64,000 nucleotides of DNA from a phage. The DNA lies in the sequence record NC_135728.1, one strand, 5' to 3'. Under the pieces are notes generated by a model. That model saw only the letters and a program-made list of their open reading frames with translations, was not told where the DNA came from and did not search any database. Positions 7,007-36,826 of the stretch are shown here, one piece after another. The position numbers and the translations under genes were made by a program. The stretch's first letter is position 1. Every line of letters starts with the position of its first letter.

Positions 7007-9604
7007 TTAAAGGTACAATCCACGGTATTGAGCATAAAGGCCCAGACCGCGAAGGATTTCGCCAGAGTGATAGCCAACCGGATCAGAAACTGCCCAGCAG
7101 CCGTTTAAAACATTATCCCCATTAATGAAGTGGTGCTTTTGCAGTAGCTTCACACAGGCCTCTACAACAATATCTATTTGGGGTATTGTCTCTGAATACC
7201 CGCACAGACCTAGCCAGCAGCAACCTGCAAGCCATTCACCTACCACCCACATCCTGTCGCCTCTATCTTGATAAGAATATCCCCCAGAGGTGTTAAAGTC
7301 TGTAGGTAGGTTTCCTGAATGAGATGACTGGAATCTGTTGAGAAACCATGCCCATTTCTGGCAGAACAGGAATAATCTTTCATCAACAGGTTCTTTATGT
7401 TTCTTGAGCTCATAGATTGTGCGGCACGCAGCAACAAAAGATCTTGACTGGAGTTTAGAGTTATCTACCATCTCCCACCAACCAGTCAACCCTTCATTAC
7501 CTCTTTGCCATACATAACGTGAGGCAACTGGACCCTCTGTCTTAAATGTATTATTATACCAGACTTGAGCGTCATACAGAAAGCCTATTGTATTTGACAA
7601 TCTATGGCGATCTATGTTTTCTGCACCCATGCAGTATACTGCTGGGTATTGCATGCCAGGGTAGGGCCAATTTGGCTTTTCCTCTAAGAGATAGTTTTCC
7701 TTATCTATCACCTTTCCGGCAGGGAACACACCTGGTGTGTGCCTGTATGCACCTTGCTTGTAGTTTCTGACATAGCAATCACCAACCTTAGCGGTTGATT
7801 CTGTCTTGCTTGCCATCCATACGCTAAACCATATTAGATAAGCATCCCTATCTGCAATATAGAACTGCGGCAGCGTGTTTACGCAGTACAGATCAAACAA
7901 GCCATTGCCTATCTGCCTGTCGCTTAGGCTGAAATCTACAGAGGTGAGTCCCTTAGGATTAGCAAAGAAAGGTTTAATCTCTTCTTCGGTGTGATGAGGT
8001 TGTGTCGGATCTAGTTTGAAATCTCCTAGAGTAAGAGTTTCTGTTATCCATTGTCCATTAGTGGCATATAGATCAGCATACCATAACCACCTATCTTTGT
8101 CAAGAAATTTGACCCTTACCATCTCATCATCTGATCGATAAGTTACTGAGTTTAAAGAAATCTCTCTCCCAAAATTGAAAGTTACTTTACCTCTTGCTAT
8201 ATTACAACGGGTGAAGTTGTCAGAGTGGTTGTAAATGTCGGTATCATACTGCATACTAACACTAGCGCCACCGCTTACGACAATGTTTTCCTCTTTAGGT
8301 AAGAGATACGGATTACCGTCTTTACCAACTACCTCTACGAAATCAGTAACCTTGGCAACTATTTCTGTTACCTCTGCCCCTCCAAAAGGAACCCCTATCC
8401 TGTACTGTTTTTTGTTATTGTTGCCATCATTAAGGATGAAATGTGGCTGGAACAGAACCCCTTCTCCTCCGAAATTCATAACAATTTCAGCATCTCTGCC
8501 TATTTTGTATGTAGTCCCTTTTTGAATTATTTCGCAAGGCTGGCGTGCGTTCATTCTAAAATTGATATACCCGTCACTGTCCCTGCTCATGGCAGGAACT
8601 GTTCCTGCAACAAGGCAAGTACCATCTGTAAACGGTGCCTTAATCAACGTGGTCTTCCTAAACAGTTTGTCGTAGGCGTTTATATCACTGAAATTAAGCA
8701 ATTTGTTGTAAGACTGTTTAAACGCGGTGTAATACTTTTCCTCACCTGTCAAGGTGTAGAGTTGATAACAAGCGTCACACCACATTTCTTCCCCGTCCAA
8801 CTCTGGGGCCTGATTATCTGCAACCACGTTTATAGGATTTACAATTACAGGGGATCCTGCAGGTATCACCGATCCGCCCTGCTCTTGAGGTAATCTTACA
8901 CAATAGGTCACCTTGTGGCTGCCTGTAACACCCTTATCTTGTAATTGGATTGTGCCGAACTCTACAGACGTATGACCACTGTCGGCTATGCTACCGTTAG
9001 CCCAATAGCGGTTACCATCCCATGCTATGTACCACTCAACCCCCCAACTTAATCCGGATGTTGTCCAATCTGGGTTAGCATCTGTGCCACCGTAAACATC
9101 GGAGTCTACAGTATCTCTTCCTAACACACCGTTATACGCTTGGAATGCCTTGTCAAGGTATTCCCCCCATGTCGGAGATCCAGCTGGGATTTTTCCTCTA
9201 CCGTTGGTAAAAGACACCACCACATCTTTAAACCCACCATGTGATGGAACCCCATCTGTGGATAGAGGGTAGTGGGACAATCTTTGCATTTTACTTTCTA
9301 CTGCATATGCACCCAGAAGATGACTATTGTAAGCTTCCCAAGCATCTTTTGCCCTATCCAGATAGAAATCGCTTTTCGATGCCCTGTATGCTTCAATGTA
9401 TCCCAGAATCAACACAGCTTGGGACTCATGCATTGCCCAATCATTATTTATCTTATTACCTGCCCACCCTGCAGCTATAAGACCATCAGGGTTTACTAAC
9501 TTATTTTGAGTATGGGTGTTGGTAATACCTGTGTTGTTATCGAGGCACTTCCTGTGCCCCTCAATCATCTGAAATACGTTATCAATGTTGTGTTGAATAC
9601 GCAT
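7007..9604 (-). CDS. tail fibre/tailspike-like protein (865 aa), possible carbohydrate-active domain
   Basis: Large ORF between baseplate and fibre genes; composition suggests a glycoside-hydrolase-like fold (weak, by eye). Confidence 0.4.
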   Translation of the reverse strand: MRIQHNIDNVFQMIEGHRKCLDNNTGITNTHTQNKLVNPDGLIAAGWAGNKINNDWAMHESQAVLILGYIEAYRASKSDFYLDRAKDAWEAYNSHLLGAYAVESKMQRLSHYPLSTDGVPSHGGFKDVVVSFTNGRGKIPAGSPTWGEYLDKAFQAYNGVLGRDTVDSDVYGGTDANPDWTTSGLSWGVEWYIAWDGNRYWANGSIADSGHTSVEFGTIQLQDKGVTGSHKVTYCVRLPQEQGGSVIPAGSPVIVNPINVVADNQAPELDGEEMWCDACYQLYTLTGEEKYYTAFKQSYNKLLNFSDINAYDKLFRKTTLIKAPFTDGTCLVAGTVPAMSRDSDGYINFRMNARQPCEIIQKGTTYKIGRDAEIVMNFGGEGVLFQPHFILNDGNNNKKQYRIGVPFGGAEVTEIVAKVTDFVEVVGKDGNPYLLPKEENIVVSGGASVSMQYDTDIYNHSDNFTRCNIARGKVTFNFGREISLNSVTYRSDDEMVRVKFLDKDRWLWYADLYATNGQWITETLTLGDFKLDPTQPHHTEEEIKPFFANPKGLTSVDFSLSDRQIGNGLFDLYCVNTLPQFYIADRDAYLIWFSVWMASKTESTAKVGDCYVRNYKQGAYRHTPGVFPAGKVIDKENYLLEEKPNWPYPGMQYPAVYCMGAENIDRHRLSNTIGFLYDAQVWYNNTFKTEGPVASRYVWQRGNEGLTGWWEMVDNSKLQSRSFVAACRTIYELKKHKEPVDERLFLFCQKWAWFLNRFQSSHSGNLPTDFNTSGGYSYQDRGDRMWVVGEWLAGCCWLGLCGYSETIPQIDIVVEACVKLLQKHHFINGDNVLNGCWAVSDPVGYHSGEILRGLGLYAQYRGLYL

Positions 9605-29634: not shown

Positions 29635-29904
29635 TTATCGAGGCACTCGGTGGATGATTCTAACAGTAACTGCATTTTCATTCATCAAGTATGCATCTAC
29701 ATCTCTGTAAATATAAAACTTCTGCTCACTATCAACAACACAAGCTACCGCCCCTTCAGAGTTGTCTTCAAAAAAGACCACCACTGCATCGCAGCTGAGT
29801 TCATGATATGACTCTCGAAGATTTACAGCCAGAGGATTGAAATCGTCACGAAAATCTACAGTATTGGTTGGATTTACACGCTCTACAATTTTAAGTGTAT
29901 ACAT
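29635..29904 (-). CDS. hypothetical protein (89 aa)
   Basis: ORF track. Confidence 0.45.
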   Translation of the reverse strand: MYTLKIVERVNPTNTVDFRDDFNPLAVNLRESYHELSCDAVVVFFEDNSEGAVACVVDSEQKFYIYRDVDAYLMNENAVTVRIIHRVPR

Positions 29905-30038: not shown

Positions 30039-30113
30039 TGGTGGCCCTGGGTGGAATTGAACCACCATCTGGCGATTATGAGTCGCTTGCTTGAACCTTC
30101 CAGCTACAGGGCC
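30039..30113 (-). tRNA. tRNA-Met (anticodon CAU; could alternatively be a lysidine-modified Ile2-type)
   Basis: Manual fold: acceptor GGCCCTG/CAGGGCC, anticodon loop CTCATAA, T-arm GGTGGTTCAATTCCACC, encoded CCA. Confidence 0.75.
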
Positions 30114-30114
30114 A

Positions 30115-30190
30115 TGGTGCTGATGGCAGGACTTGAACCTGCAACCTATTGATTACAAATCAATTGCACTGCCAATTGTGCTACATCAGC
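30115..30190 (-). tRNA. tRNA-Thr (anticodon UGU)
   Basis: Manual fold: acceptor GCTGATG/CATCAGC, anticodon stem ATTGA/TCAAT with loop TTTGTAA, T-arm GCAGGTTCAAGTCCTGC, encoded CCA. Confidence 0.85.
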
Positions 30191-30196
30191 AAAAAG

Positions 30197-30294
30197 GTGC
30201 TAGGCGGTGGAATCGAACCACCTATGTATTCAACGACTACCTCGTCTATTTTCAGGATTAAAAATCCTCGCCCTTGCCAAAGGGCTTACCTAGC
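30197..30294 (-). tRNA. atypical tRNA-like gene (about 98 nt; canonical acceptor and T-arm, aberrant anticodon/variable region, CCA not fully encoded)
   Basis: Acceptor GCTAGGT/GCCTAGC and T-arm GGTGG-TTCGATT-CCACC are canonical; only a 4-bp AGGA/TCCT stem with loop TTTTTAA and a ~30-nt region before the T-arm; positions 8-9 are AA. Confidence 0.4.
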
Positions 30295-30392
30295 TCAGTA
30301 TGTTGACCATGTTGCTAGTCGGCGATGACGACTGTAACATTTGATAATCCGGTTCTGCTTCCGGCTTTCGCTTAATTACAAGGTCAACAATG

Positions 30393-30483: not shown

Positions 30484-30598
30484 TTTATAAATTATACTGA
30501 TAATGACACTGATTTTCGAGCAGTTAGTGACTAGTATAAACGACGATAAATATCAATGCCATTATCTGTATTATTTACGCATCTAAAAAATATAAATT

Positions 30599-30860: not shown

Positions 30861-31199
30861 TTAGCTATTGCTAACAGGCTGTATTTCTGTAGTAAATGGC
30901 ATAAAAGGTGCTGGTTTTTCAGCCTCTTCTACTACCACCTCTTCCTCTTCACCAAACATCTCATCATATTCTTCCTGCATTCGGTCTGCCTTATCAAGAA
31001 CATACTCTGCAATGCTTTGACGAATATTTTGTTTGGTTTTCGGGTCCAACATCAGCTCTCTTAAAACTTTGTGAGCTTCTGGAACCATCGCTATGAAAGA
31101 TTCCTTCATATCAAGGATGTTCTTCTCTAGCTGAATGGCGTTGGACTCCTCTTTCAGAGGTCTGCCTCTACGGCGACGCTTTTTAGTTGTATCCGCCAT
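30861..31199 (-). CDS. small AT-hook-like DNA-binding protein with acidic C-terminal tail (112 aa)
   Basis: Start chosen at internal Met (MADTTKKRRRRGRPLK) with GGAGG RBS 6 nt upstream and its own promoter; RGRP AT-hook motif; C-terminus EEYDEMFGEEEEVVVEEAE. Confidence 0.55.
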   Translation of the reverse strand: MADTTKKRRRRGRPLKEESNAIQLEKNILDMKESFIAMVPEAHKVLRELMLDPKTKQNIRQSIAEYVLDKADRMQEEYDEMFGEEEEVVVEEAEKPAPFMPFTTEIQPVSNS

Positions 31200-33700: not shown

Positions 33701-34255
33701 TTACTCCCTGCTGTCAATATCAAAACTCATTGCAATACGGTATGCCTCTTCTAATGGTAAGAGTCTCCCCCACACATCCCAACCGACATCAAACTGTCTA
33801 CCAAACAACTGTTGTGTGGTTCCGTGAGCATGACCGAACAGTTGGACTGATCCGTGATGCTTTCTGTTCCACGTTGCAAACTGGTAATGGCTCATACAGA
33901 TCAAATTCTTGTTGTGGCGAAGCTCGTAATAATCTACAACCTCATGACCGAACTCTTTCATAATTCTGACAGTCGTCCTTGTGTCATGGTTGCCACGAAC
34001 AAGAATAATATGTCCGTTCAACATATTTAGAATATCTGGAAGTAAGTTGTTGATATTCTTATCATTAGTGCACGCAATATCTCCCAGGTGGAACACAGTG
34101 TCTGCAGGTGACACAACTGAGTTCCACTCGGTGATGATTCCCGCATTCATACTGTCAAGATTGTGATCATATTGAGATCTGTGTTTTTGACATGAATCAA
34201 ACTCCATGACCCGCTGGTGGAGAAAGTGCGTATCGCTTGTTACAAAGTATTTCAT
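33701..34255 (-). CDS. calcineurin-like metallophosphoesterase (putative RNA 2',3'-phosphatase of an RNA-repair set)
   Basis: Motifs DTHF, GDIA, GNHD, GHAH; start set at internal Met with GAGGAA RBS just after the kinase stop. Confidence 0.65.
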   Translation of the reverse strand: MKYFVTSDTHFLHQRVMEFDSCQKHRSQYDHNLDSMNAGIITEWNSVVSPADTVFHLGDIACTNDKNINNLLPDILNMLNGHIILVRGNHDTRTTVRIMKEFGHEVVDYYELRHNKNLICMSHYQFATWNRKHHGSVQLFGHAHGTTQQLFGRQFDVGWDVWGRLLPLEEAYRIAMSFDIDSRE

Positions 34256-34262
34256 ACATTCC

Positions 34263-34673
34263 TCATTTAAGTTTAATGCAGTTTTTAAGCTGGCGTTCCA
34301 TACGATCCACAACCTTGTCTGGAACATCATGAATGCTTTTATTACCGTGGCGGTTTTCAACCACGATTACGGTATAACTATACCCATGACTGATTGCCAT
34401 GTCAACATATTCCTGCACATGTTTTTCTTTTGTAAACGTATTACTTACCACGATACGGTCGTATCCCATACACATCATATCTTCTACGTTATCTTTGCAC
34501 CATTTTGCTGCGAGTGTTACTTTACTTGCATCCCAGTTGTAATTGCCGTCATCGTCATACCAAAACATGTCATTCTCAAAATGTGGATACAGACCTTCTA
34601 AAGATAGCGCATTTGCCAGTGTTGATTTGCCAGACCCTGGCAGACCACGCACGATATATAGCATTTTAGACAT
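34263..34673 (-). CDS. P-loop polynucleotide kinase-like protein
   Basis: Walker A GLPGSGKST near the N-terminus; start at Met of MSKMLYIVRG with GGAGG RBS 7 nt upstream; ORF-track N-terminal extension judged spurious. Confidence 0.6.
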   Translation of the reverse strand: MSKMLYIVRGLPGSGKSTLANALSLEGLYPHFENDMFWYDDDGNYNWDASKVTLAAKWCKDNVEDMMCMGYDRIVVSNTFTKEKHVQEYVDMAISHGYSYTVIVVENRHGNKSIHDVPDKVVDRMERQLKNCIKLK

Positions 34674-34773
34674 AGCAATCCTCCGTTTTAATTTTAATGA
34701 TAGTATACCTAACTGTTTTGTTAATTTCAAGTGTTGACACCAGGTTGTTTGTGTGGCAGGATAGACTGACAAA

Positions 34774-35709
34774 ATGACAAATGAGGAACGTATGATGAAG
34801 TATTTTAATGCAGATGACCTAGTAGACAAAGGTCTTGTAACCAGTCGGTATTATCCAGATCTTGGATTAAAGATCTATAAATATGCCAGAAAAGTATTCT
34901 ACAACAATCTGTGGCATTTGTCTCCGCGTTTACTGGAGTGCCGAGGTATTGTTGTTGGCAATGAGGGGAATGTTGTGGCATGGCCTTTCACAAAAGTATT
35001 CAACTTAGGAGAAAACTCCACCAACCTACCGGACAGTAAACTTGTTACTGCGGTAGAGAAAAAGAACGGATTCCTCGGTGTGGTATCATCTCATAAAGGT
35101 GAACTATTGTTCTCAACAACCGGGTCTCTTGATTCCCCATATTGTAACCTCGCAAAAGAAACCATCAGGGAGCAATGTGGTAATTTAGATCTTATCAAGA
35201 AGGTTATGGGCAATGAAAACATGACATTCATGTTTGAAATTTGCCACCCTTCAGATCCGCATATTGTTCAGGAAGATCATGGCGCATATTTGATAGGTTG
35301 CAGATATAATGATTCTGGAATAATGCTACCAGAAGCAGCTTTAGATGGGATTGCCAAATACCTTGGTGCAAAACGTCCTCACACTGTGCGTGAAATTCCG
35401 TTCAGCTATGCAAAAGAATTAGCTGCAGAAACAAGAGGTGAAGGGTATATGATTCGTAAGCCTTACTACCCTTATGATCTGCAGCTGAAGATCAAGTCTC
35501 CATACTATCTGGCACGGAAGGCAGTAATGAGGGGTAAAGCTTGGAAGATTTGGGATGATGATATCTTTAAACGTGTTGACGAAGAGTTTTACGGTATGGT
35601 AAAATTTATTCGTAGCAACTATACAGAAGATGTGTGGAATTGCTTATTAGAGCAGGAGCGTCGTGAGATACTGGACTACTATTTCCACAACGAGGACTAT
35701 ATGCAATGA
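34774..35709 (+). CDS. RNA ligase, T4 Rnl1-like
   Basis: Stretches resembling T4 RNA ligase 1 as recalled: LECRGI, KVFNLGEN, nucleotidyl-transferase motif I KKNGFL, LFSTTGS. Confidence 0.65.
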   Translation: MTNEERMMKYFNADDLVDKGLVTSRYYPDLGLKIYKYARKVFYNNLWHLSPRLLECRGIVVGNEGNVVAWPFTKVFNLGENSTNLPDSKLVTAVEKKNGFLGVVSSHKGELLFSTTGSLDSPYCNLAKETIREQCGNLDLIKKVMGNENMTFMFEICHPSDPHIVQEDHGAYLIGCRYNDSGIMLPEAALDGIAKYLGAKRPHTVREIPFSYAKELAAETRGEGYMIRKPYYPYDLQLKIKSPYYLARKAVMRGKAWKIWDDDIFKRVDEEFYGMVKFIRSNYTEDVWNCLLEQERREILDYYFHNEDYMQ

Positions 35710-36056
35710 AGAAGTGGATTGTGTGGCTTGATGATTTTAGAGATCCGTCAGATTATGGACTCCCAGACGCTCTGTGGCTAAAGAATTCTTCTGAGTTTAT
35801 GGATTTTCTTAATGATAAGAGAAAGCTCTACAGACGCGTATCTGAGTGGTATTTTGACAATGATCTAGGTGAAGTGCTTGAAGGGTACGACTGCTTCTCT
35901 GCGCTAGAGGAGAAATTTGTATTCGGAAAGCCACCACTTATTGACAACGTGATTATTTTCGTGCATACTTCTAATCCATCGGCAGCTCGTAAATTTATGC
36001 TTGCTGCTGACTCATTCAAGAAGTTTGGAATAGAGATCAAACAAAACATCTACTAA
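35706..36056 (+). CDS. hypothetical protein (116 aa) within the ligase/Sir2 operon
   Basis: ORF track; start overlaps the ligase stop. Confidence 0.5.
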   Translation: MKKWIVWLDDFRDPSDYGLPDALWLKNSSEFMDFLNDKRKLYRRVSEWYFDNDLGEVLEGYDCFSALEEKFVFGKPPLIDNVIIFVHTSNPSAARKFMLAADSFKKFGIEIKQNIY

Positions 36057-36064
36057 GGACATTT

Positions 36065-36826
36065 ATGCGACGACTGATTATTATCTCCGGTGCTGGTTTG
36101 AGCGCTGAATCTGGTATTCCAACTTTCCGATCTGGTAGCACTGCAATGTGGGAGAATTTCAGCATCGATGAGGTGTGCAACATCCACACCTTTGCCAAGA
36201 ACTACTATAAGGTGCATGACTTTTACAATGCACGTCGTGTAGCTCTGGGCAGTGTTGATCCTAACCTTGCACATCTTCGGATCGCTGAGTGGTATTCCCG
36301 CTGGCCTGGTCGTGTGATCAACCTTACCACCAATGTAGATGATTTGCTGGAGCGTGCTGGTGTAAAACATGAAGATATTTTACATGTCCACGGGTATTTG
36401 CCTGAAATCACCTACGAAGATGCTGAAGGTAACGATGTAATTAAAAATATCGGATACACGGAGGTAGATACAGGCAAGTATACCTGGGTTAAGCCTAATG
36501 TAGTGTTCTTCGGTGAGGTTGCTCCTAAGTATACAGACATGTATGACCTGTTGACATCTCTCACAAGCAATGATATGGTGATCCTGGTAGGTTGTTCTAA
36601 CACAGTTATTAATTTTAACTGGGAATTGTTTCCTGCTACTTGTAAAGGCACAAAACTGCTGATTGTAAACAAGTATGACTCGCAGAGTGCAGATGGAAGT
36701 GGCATTTCACGTAGCGACCTTTATCAATATGAGGATCGCGGGATCCCTGTATGGTTTAACGGTGCTGTTGACGCTTTCTCTGATAAAGCATTTATTGAAA
36801 CTGTAGAAAACTTTATGGAACTTTAA
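36065..36826 (+). CDS. Sir2-family (sirtuin-like) NAD-dependent protein lacking the zinc ribbon
   Basis: Sirtuin signatures GAGLSAESGIPTFR, TNVDDLLERAG, HVHG, VVFFGE, ILVGCS; no CxxC pairs between the HG and FFGE motifs. Confidence 0.7.
   Translation: MRRLIIISGAGLSAESGIPTFRSGSTAMWENFSIDEVCNIHTFAKNYYKVHDFYNARRVALGSVDPNLAHLRIAEWYSRWPGRVINLTTNVDDLLERAGVKHEDILHVHGYLPEITYEDAEGNDVIKNIGYTEVDTGKYTWVKPNVVFFGEVAPKYTDMYDLLTSLTSNDMVILVGCSNTVINFNWELFPATCKGTKLLIVNKYDSQSADGSGISRSDLYQYEDRGIPVWFNGAVDAFSDKAFIETVENFMEL

Follow-up and report, generated by a model that had tools for sequence, protein, structure and literature searches.

The window, that is the whole stretch of 64,000 nucleotides of phage DNA analysed here (NC_135728.1), carries a tRNA operon on its minus strand. 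The operon comprises seven genes, transcribed in the order Arg(UCU), Tyr(GUA), Ser(UGA), a tRNA-like element, Thr(UGU), Met/Ile2(CAU) and Pro(UGG):

30851-30823, minus strand: promoter-like TTGACA-17-TAATAT, found in the sequence; P(tRNA) is annotated there in the rV5 RefSeq record
30764-29951, minus strand: tRNA operon (ARAGORN)
30764-30690, minus strand: tRNA-Arg(UCU) (ARAGORN)
30685-30599, minus strand: tRNA-Tyr(GUA) (ARAGORN)
30483-30393, minus strand: tRNA-Ser(UGA) (ARAGORN)
30294-30196, minus strand: tRNA-like gene (ARAGORN, Rfam tRNA at 31.0 bits, fold, orthologues)
30190-30115, minus strand: tRNA-Thr(UGU) (ARAGORN)
30113-30039, minus strand: tRNA-Met/Ile2(CAU) (ARAGORN)
30027-29951, minus strand: tRNA-Pro(UGG) (ARAGORN)

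The first-pass annotation had placed an atypical tRNA-like gene at 30197-30294 inside a tRNA cluster, and both the position and the setting are right. The gene has 97-99 nt; counted as nucleotides 1-99 of the RNA, G1 is 30294, A73 is 30198 and C74 and C75 are 30197-30196. The six neighbours had been described as cleanly folding, in agreement with six clean ARAGORN calls and with Rfam, whose models give them 60-77 bits as tRNA or recognise them as class II tRNAs. Over 900 bp, the tRNA region shares 98-99% identity with rV5-like coliphages (Vequintavirus, Vequintavirinae), and parts of it are common to 737 phage records. This E. coli rV5-like cluster also matches, at 98% identity, about 18 records that are named "Campylobacter phage" and give C. 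jejuni as host (MG0656xx); the host labels look doubtful, perhaps a result of contamination or mislabelling. The flanking ORFs (29635-29904 and 30861-31199) matched only PHROGs of unknown function.

Two spacers within the operon are themselves structured. The 98-nt spacer at 30295-30392 (minus strand) is closed by GUUGACC...GGUCAAC and folds better than shuffled sequences (z = -2.6), and the 115-nt spacer at 30484-30598 (minus strand) forms an imperfect hairpin of about 25 bp (z = -3.9 against shuffles) and contains a promoter-like TCGAAA-17-TATAAT at 30519-30491 on the same strand. Both could be further small RNAs or processing signals. The tRNA with the CAU anticodon (30039-30113, minus strand) is a tRNA-Met in most records and a tRNA-Ile (AUA, lysidine type) in BASEL phages.

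A standard tRNA call with a clean cloverleaf, which the first-pass annotation had named as the result that would speak against its hand-made fold, was not obtained for the tRNA-like gene; ARAGORN, Rfam and the public annotations disagree with each other (none, tRNA-OTHER, tRNA-Lys, tRNA-TERM). ARAGORN reports a "tRNA-???(atcc)" at 30196-30294, amid the six clean tRNAs, and makes no call on the Seunavirus and Mydovirus orthologues. The Rfam tRNA model RF00005 matches with 31.0 bits (E = 4e-4), a marginal pass of its gathering score of 29, and its alignment gives the anticodon UUU, a 26-nt insertion in the variable region and the deletion of one anticodon-stem position. Prokka-type records carry the gene as "tRNA-OTHER ???(atcc)", BASEL phage records as "tRNA-Lys, codon AAA" and phage SophiaRose as "tRNA-TERM", and the orthologue in the Henunavirus Hena1 is annotated as tRNA-sup(tca). 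The gene is not annotated in the rV5 RefSeq record and is omitted from the six tRNAs listed in the rV5 genome paper. We found no paper on a tRNA-like RNA of Vequintavirinae or on a variable arm in rV5, and the papers on KPP-1 and Septuagintavirus give tRNA counts and do not discuss the element.

The RNA can be read as follows, all on the minus strand:

30288-30294, minus strand: 5' strand of the acceptor stem, GCUAGGU, pairing with 30199-30205 in 7/7 pairs
30270-30287, minus strand: A8 and A9, then the D arm GCCC-UUUGGCAA-GGGC, as parsed; 3/4 D-stem pairs covary
30253-30269, minus strand: anticodon-like arm G, AGGA, UUUUUAA, UCCU, G, with UUU at 30260-30262; the stem covaries
30223-30252, minus strand: extra domain of AAAAUA, a predicted hairpin GACGA-GGUAG-UCGUU and the linker GAAUACAUA; the linkers are nearly invariant
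30206-30222, minus strand: T arm GGUGG-UUCGAUU-CCACC (Rfam model, covariation)
30191-30205, minus strand: 3' strand of the acceptor stem, GCCUAGC, A73, CC and a U5 spacer to tRNA-Thr, which starts at 30190 (sequence)

The acceptor stem (GCUAGGU/GCCUAGC) and the T arm are thus canonical, as had been claimed. The D arm is followed by G, the arm AGGA-UUUUUAA-UCCU, G, a 30-nt stretch with a 5-bp hairpin, and the T arm. The parse reproduces the 4-bp stem with loop TTTTTAA seen at first pass; it is alternatively 5 bp with a 5-nt loop, if U-A closes. The estimate of about 30 nt before the T arm is equally accurate, with 31 nt counted between anticodon stem and T stem in the window copy. Instead of a 4-bp stem, a 6-bp stem with a 4-nt loop can be drawn for the D arm. 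The minimum free energy fold is a cloverleaf with five arms, more stable than shuffled sequences (z = -3.1).

Orthologues are widespread in the subfamily. The window-type copy was found by blastn in 123 Vequinta- and Avunavirus-type records, and a Seunavirus copy used as query gave 188 records of the genera Seuna-, Mydo- and Henunavirus, whose hosts are Escherichia, Klebsiella, Salmonella, Cronobacter, Erwinia, Enterobacter, Proteus and Raoultella. Orthologues span five genera (Vequinta-, Avuna-, Seuna-, Mydo- and Henunavirus) and occur in metagenomic relatives as well. IMG/VR and metagenome pattern scans added the divergent members L032, L038, L040, L041, L045, L048, L051 and L055/L060; our collection comprises 31 distinct versions, plus L055/L060. 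A loose 5'-pattern scan of genome contigs gave 85 matches, none of which passed the T-loop filter, and these were treated as chance matches. In L041, a metagenomic relative with a UCA-type element, ARAGORN calls an amber-suppressor-like "tRNA-Pyl(cta)" at 7862-7934, which hints that some relatives carry suppressor-type tRNAs.

The comparison with related phages, which had been proposed as a check, revealed compensatory changes across the subfamily far beyond chance. Pairing was scored for 27 distinct sequences at 20 pairs (acceptor stem, D stem, three anticodon-stem pairs, T stem and one tertiary pair). Every one of the 540 pair cells (100%) is a standard pair, and 11 of the 20 pairs have changed on both sides, among them five of the seven acceptor pairs. 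None of 500 shuffles reached the observed pairing and covariation, and partners slid out of register pair in at most 47%. The fourth anticodon-stem pair covaries too (A-U, U-A, C-G, G-C), and the stem occurs as AGGA/UCCU, AGGUC/GACCU, GGGC/GCCC, AGGC/GCCU and AGGG/CCCU. The tertiary pair of the elbow, G19 (30277; column 18 of A3) with C56 (30215; column 93), is GC in 18 sequences and UA in nine, without exception: the D-loop UUUGGCAA occurs only with the T-loop UUCGAUU, and the D-loop UUUGUCAA only with UUAGAUU, i.e. G19-C56 has become U19-A56. Since this pair covaries perfectly, the L-shape of a tRNA is itself under selection. With a 7-bp acceptor stem, a 4-bp D stem, a 5-bp T stem with T-loop and the 19-56 elbow of D-loop and T-loop kept in the 27 sequences, the RNA has these parts of a canonical tRNA and therefore adopts the L-shape.

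Two features that had been listed as irregular read differently in this light. The letters AA at positions 8-9 are there, but they are no sign of decay, since A8 is invariant in the family. U14 is invariant as well; an 8-14 pair in swapped form is conceivable, as is a 6-bp/4-nt D arm like that of tRNA-Sec, and since both columns are invariant, covariation does not separate these alternatives. The CCA end is indeed incomplete, CC being followed by U5, but this is no mark of a dying gene either, as most relatives encode U73-CCA. In Mydovirus the 109-nt element diverges by 0-2% and its 500-nt flanks by 5-15%. Taken together, the alignments argue that the tRNA-like gene is real, functional and under strong purifying selection, which excludes a pseudogene.

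The anticodon-like arm differs from that of any ordinary tRNA in all lineages. A canonical 5-bp stem with a 7-nt loop after N26 is found in none of them; stem and loop sizes are 4+7, 5+6, 5+5 or 4+6. Henunavirus and most divergent metagenomic lineages (group A) have GGGC-NAUCAAR-GCCC, 4 bp with a UCA-centred 7-nt loop and A33; Seuna- and Mydovirus (group B) have AGGUC-CNNCCA-GACCU, 5 bp with 6 nt or 4 bp with 8 nt; Vequinta- and Avunavirus (group C) have AGGA-UUUUUAA-UCCU or the loop UUUAUAA; and L038 has AGGG-GUGAUA-CCCU. An invariant G on either side flanks the arm in all lineages. By genus the "anticodon" is UUU, UAU, NCC or UCA, and near-identical Mydovirus copies carry AU, CA, CG, UU or CU at two central loop positions, with four other variable sites. 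The "anticodon" is thus the least constrained part of the molecule, the reverse of what holds for a decoding tRNA.

The region between this arm and the T arm measures 30-40 nt across lineages and consists of a GAAAA linker, a hairpin and ...AUACAUA. The GAAAA linker is essentially invariant (GUAAA in L032), and AUACAUA precedes the T stem in all but the most divergent lineage, L055/L060, which has AUACGAAA. AUACAUA was contained in two of the scan patterns, so its invariance is partly a matter of ascertainment; members found by blastn or with the 5' pattern carry it too. The hairpin is unrelated in sequence between lineages, yet folding predicts one each time (21 versions, mean z -2.15, 17/21 below -1.5). 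Pairing between the linkers (AUGUGU/AUACAU) is possible in Henunavirus-type copies only and was dismissed as not conserved. Between phages Mydo (L012) and K45PH128C2 (L013), whose flanks share 99% identity, the elements differ at nine positions, all in the extra hairpin, which amounts to a cassette exchange between phages. The "unusual long insert" considered at first pass is therefore a fair description, but the insert did not arise lately by chance: every genus has this conserved extra domain, in which A-rich linkers that do not vary enclose a variable hairpin, and outside the tRNA parts nothing in the molecule is better conserved. An origin by duplication of a neighbouring tRNA was also rejected, the body being only generically similar (about 40/57 positions) to any tRNA of these phages' clusters.

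In Seuna-, Mydo- and Henunavirus the tRNA-like gene is directly followed by a conserved non-coding element of about 185 nt (L010 717-905, L016 714-900, L005 3108-3297), which has no counterpart in the window; nhmmer found no homology to the window's spacers, and Rfam had no match for it. The two ends of this element, AACAUAUUUU or AAUCUAUUUUG on the 5' side and AAAAUAUGUUU or CAAAAUAGAUUU on the 3' side, are complementary to each other, and where genera differ the changes compensate; some phages have two tandem copies. Two identities are conceivable, a second structured RNA and a small mobile element whose ends are inverted.

The element does not fall into any of the known classes of tRNA-shaped RNA to which we compared it. 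Like class II tRNAs and bacterial tRNA-Sec, it has a long extra arm between anticodon and T arms, but the linkers of its hairpin are single-stranded, conserved and 6-9 nt long on each side, compared to 1-2 nt in those tRNAs, and its anticodon is not that of Leu, Ser or Tyr. With tRNA-Sec it also shares the possible 6-bp/4-nt D arm and, in some lineages, a UCA-centred loop; RF01852 is the best-matching model for the Henunavirus copy, and its score of 39 bits in Hena1 is the highest in the family, but stays below the threshold of 47. tRNA-Sec has an 8/5 helix of 13 bp, UCA and G73; the family has a 7/5 helix and U73 or A73, and the window copy UUU and A73. The tRNA-like domain of tmRNA is defined by G3-U70, a tag ORF and the lack of an anticodon arm, whereas pair 3-70 is U-A here. 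ARAGORN made no tmRNA call, and Rfam gave for permuted tmRNA a 17-bit match away from the element and for the Y RNA YrlA one sub-threshold match across two neighbouring tRNAs; tmRNA, permuted tmRNA and Y RNA were set aside, as their matches were all sub-threshold and none lay on the element itself. Viral and cellular RNAs such as the MHV68 vtRNAs, mascRNA and bacterial YrlA Y RNA are tRNA-shaped, are matured by tRNA enzymes and do not use their anticodon arms for decoding; they belong to other kingdoms and have other architectures than the element. The nearest coliphage analogue is species 1 RNA (rnaC) of T4, which together with species 2 RNA (rnaD) is a small stable RNA of unexplained function in a coliphage tRNA cluster. 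It has a canonical T arm (CCGGG-UUCGAAU-CCCGG) and extra hairpins, but is 139 nt long and has no evident D or anticodon-like arm, whereas the Vequintavirinae RNA keeps the cloverleaf and the elbow. A comparison by eye showed no sequence similarity between the two.

The closest resemblance of the window copy is to tRNA-Lys(UUU). Its loop is canonical, with U32 U33 U34 U35 U36 A37 A38 closed by A31-U39, and its 3' end is GCCUAGC-A-CC, so that the anticodon UUU with U33 and A37 is combined with A73; groups A and B have U73-CCA. UUU and A73 are what we take to be the identity set of E. coli LysRS; likewise, NCC, U73, G1-C72 and C2-G71 are presumably close to the identity set of GlyRS. This hints that the identity elements move together, anticodon with discriminator, as judged from only two transitions. 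A loop xUUUUAA with A31-U39 and A73 is also found in tRNA-Lys(UUU) of E. coli and T5 (PMC11464382, PMC12409363). In contrast to tRNA-Lys(UUU), the anticodon stem of the element is one layer short, position 8 is A instead of U8, the class I variable loop of 4-5 nt (5 nt in tRNA-Lys) is replaced by the 31-nt extra domain, and the orthologues in other genera are wholly un-Lys-like. A phage with 98.6% identity in the BASEL collection, annotated genome-wide, has tRNAs in this cluster only, and the phage studied here should therefore have no other, canonical tRNA-Lys; larger relatives encode one.

tRNA-Lys(UUU) is a target of phage defence. [quoted passage not shown] In the window, the arm has U36-A-A-U-C-C41 as its 3' strand. 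C41 thus matches the resistance change of T5 (Mut2), whose tRNA-Lys(UUU) is a PARIS-resistant viral tRNA likewise encoded in a phage tRNA cluster. That phage tRNAs can serve as supplements or as decoys against defences that cut tRNA is documented (PMC13096335, PMC11464382). Three other tRNAs in the small set of the phage, Thr(UGU), Pro(UGG) and Tyr(GUA), have been reported to be targets of PARIS or of retron-Eco7/Septu (PMC12409363, PMC13096335). The phage tRNA-Thr(UGU) (30115-30190, minus strand) keeps the exact AriB motif U36AAUC|A41 and is, by that criterion alone, non-resistant. An RNA heal-and-seal module (33701-36056; Pfam, BASEL annotation) lies 3.4-5.8 kb from the element:

33701-34360, minus strand: metallophosphoesterase (Pfam)
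34263-34829, minus strand: P-loop (polynucleotide) kinase-like protein (Pfam)
34774-35709, plus strand: Rnl1-family RNA ligase (PF09511, 55.5 bits)
35706-36056, plus strand: cyclic-phosphate-processing cREC domain (Pfam)

In T4, such an enzyme set repairs tRNA-Lys cut by PrrC. Rnl1 homologues, present throughout Vequintavirinae, are shared by many phages that lack the element, and the proximity of the module is for this reason weak evidence, context rather than linkage. A SIR2-family protein is encoded after the module, at 36065-36826; module and SIR2-family protein suggest pressure from RNA-cleaving and NAD-related defences.

What is the function of this RNA? The element is not an ordinary decoder; it is no normal tRNA, but it is not dead either. 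While loop identity and length change, body and extra domain are conserved, so the common role in the family is probably not decoding. Of the first-pass suggestions, that of a tRNA-derived RNA fares best, in so far as a tRNA-derived functional RNA is the most plausible class; the regulatory role attached to it found no support. Our tentative preference is for a tRNA-Lys look-alike that counters host nucleases targeting tRNA, of the PrrC or PARIS type, in its likeliest form as a non-decoding decoy. Going by general tRNA biology, the element would be transcribed together with the tRNA operon, its 5' end would be cut by RNase P, and the host CCA-adding enzyme would complete the CCA after 3' trimming of ACC-UUUUU. 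The mature RNA would then display the loop and A73 of tRNA-Lys(UUU) and compete for, or resist, host anticodon nucleases, presumably by binding host factors that recognise tRNA, as a competitor or decoy without a part in decoding, with a nuclease-resistant spare tRNA-Lys as a close second. What counts against a decoy is that it should mimic a host tRNA, and the loops of Seuna-, Mydo- and Henunavirus do not fit; to our knowledge, neither C-CAUCCA-G (Seuna- and Mydovirus) nor CAUCAAA with A33 (Henunavirus) matches a known nuclease target.

The spare just mentioned, a bona fide aberrant tRNA-Lys(UUU) that is charged by LysRS and serves translation when host tRNA-Lys is cleaved, its odd body making it a poor nuclease substrate, is a possibility to be taken seriously, if with less confidence than the decoy. 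Real decoding by the window copy is plausible given its canonical U33, A37, A38 and A73, and the 7-nt loop with A31-U39 closing pair, the presumed LysRS identity set, the discriminator that departs from the U73 of other genera jointly with the anticodon, the intact L-shape and C41 as in T5 all speak for it. So do the position as the sole Lys-type gene of the phage, where larger relatives have a canonical tRNA-Lys, the BASEL annotation and the passed Rfam gathering score, marginal as this score is. On the other hand, all lineages have an anticodon stem of 4 bp or else lack N26, and no Lys tRNA is known to have a 31-nt extra region with long single-stranded linkers. Loops of 6 or 8 nt and other anticodons occur in orthologues whose body is under strong selection, which rules out Lys decoding as the conserved function. 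Avunavirus copies with UAU have U73 or C73 and encode no CCA. A recoding tRNA, be it a quadruplet or frameshift decoder ("atcc") or an opal suppressor similar to tRNA-Sec, is very improbable. The idea takes up the ARAGORN call, the tRNA-sup(tca) annotation of Hena1 with its 39 bits, the loop NAUCAAR with UCA at its centre in many lineages and the drawable 6-bp/4-nt D arm. The four-base fold was rejected as it needs an AUUUU/AAAAU pairing that is confined to Vequinta- and Avunavirus, the U-run being absent elsewhere; the opal suppressor is attractive for Henunavirus-type copies and inapplicable to the UUU loop of the window, quite apart from the 7/5 helix, the absence of G73, A at position 33 and the sub-threshold score.

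Two further explanations dispense with a free RNA that does something. The element could merely recruit RNase P as a punctuation mark that releases or stabilises neighbouring RNAs, in keeping with its invariable location within tRNA operons, its place in other genera between the preceding tRNA, 2 nt away, and the conserved, structured element of about 185 nt, which follows directly, and, in the window, its place after the structured 98-nt spacer. We regard this as improbable: a minihelix of acceptor and T arm would suffice for it, and the invariant linkers, the elbow pair, the encoded CCA and the anticodon-loop-like signature would be left unexplained. Least credible of all is the functionless, decaying pseudo-tRNA carried along in the cluster, an option raised at first pass. 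The non-canonical anticodon arm, the incomplete CCA and the omission from the original rV5 annotation may seem to favour it, and Avunavirus copies do look more relaxed, with a variable discriminator and with G1-U72 in L039. Moreover, in Escherichia phage V18 (L006 1451-1547) half of the element is gone: a deletion has joined tRNA-Tyr, of which the 5' half is left, to the element's 3' half and has removed tRNA-Ser and both spacers, leaving Arg, Thr and Met as the remaining tRNAs. This natural deletion tells us that the element is dispensable for growth in at least one isolate. Decay is contradicted by the purifying selection across genera, by helices and G19-C56 maintained through compensatory change, the tertiary pair being one of 11 compensated pairs, by the divergence of 0-2% against 5-15% in the flanks, and by the invariant linkers of the extra domain.

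On the present view, phage tRNA clusters serve in part as counter-measures against tRNA-cleaving immunity. In the Vequintavirinae these clusters contain a previously undescribed family of tRNA-shaped RNAs, which is present in well over a hundred sequenced phages, including therapeutic-type coliphages and phages of Klebsiella, Salmonella, Cronobacter and Erwinia, and whose annotations, where there are any, are of four mutually incompatible kinds. If nothing else, the tRNA counts and isotype calls of these phages should be corrected. A conserved extra domain combined with fast-changing specificity loops makes the RNA a candidate for an RNA decoy or a nuclease-proof tRNA. It is tempting, if rather speculative, to go further and to regard the family as a dedicated tRNA-shaped chassis, in which body and extra domain are fixed and loop and hairpin are retargeted, and which would serve as a counter-defence decoy or nuclease-proof substitute; its opponents would be tRNA-cleaving immune systems such as PrrC, PARIS and retron-Eco7/Septu. 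If this is true, the family would add a new class to the anti-defence RNAs and might be analogous in function to the species 1 and species 2 RNAs of T4.
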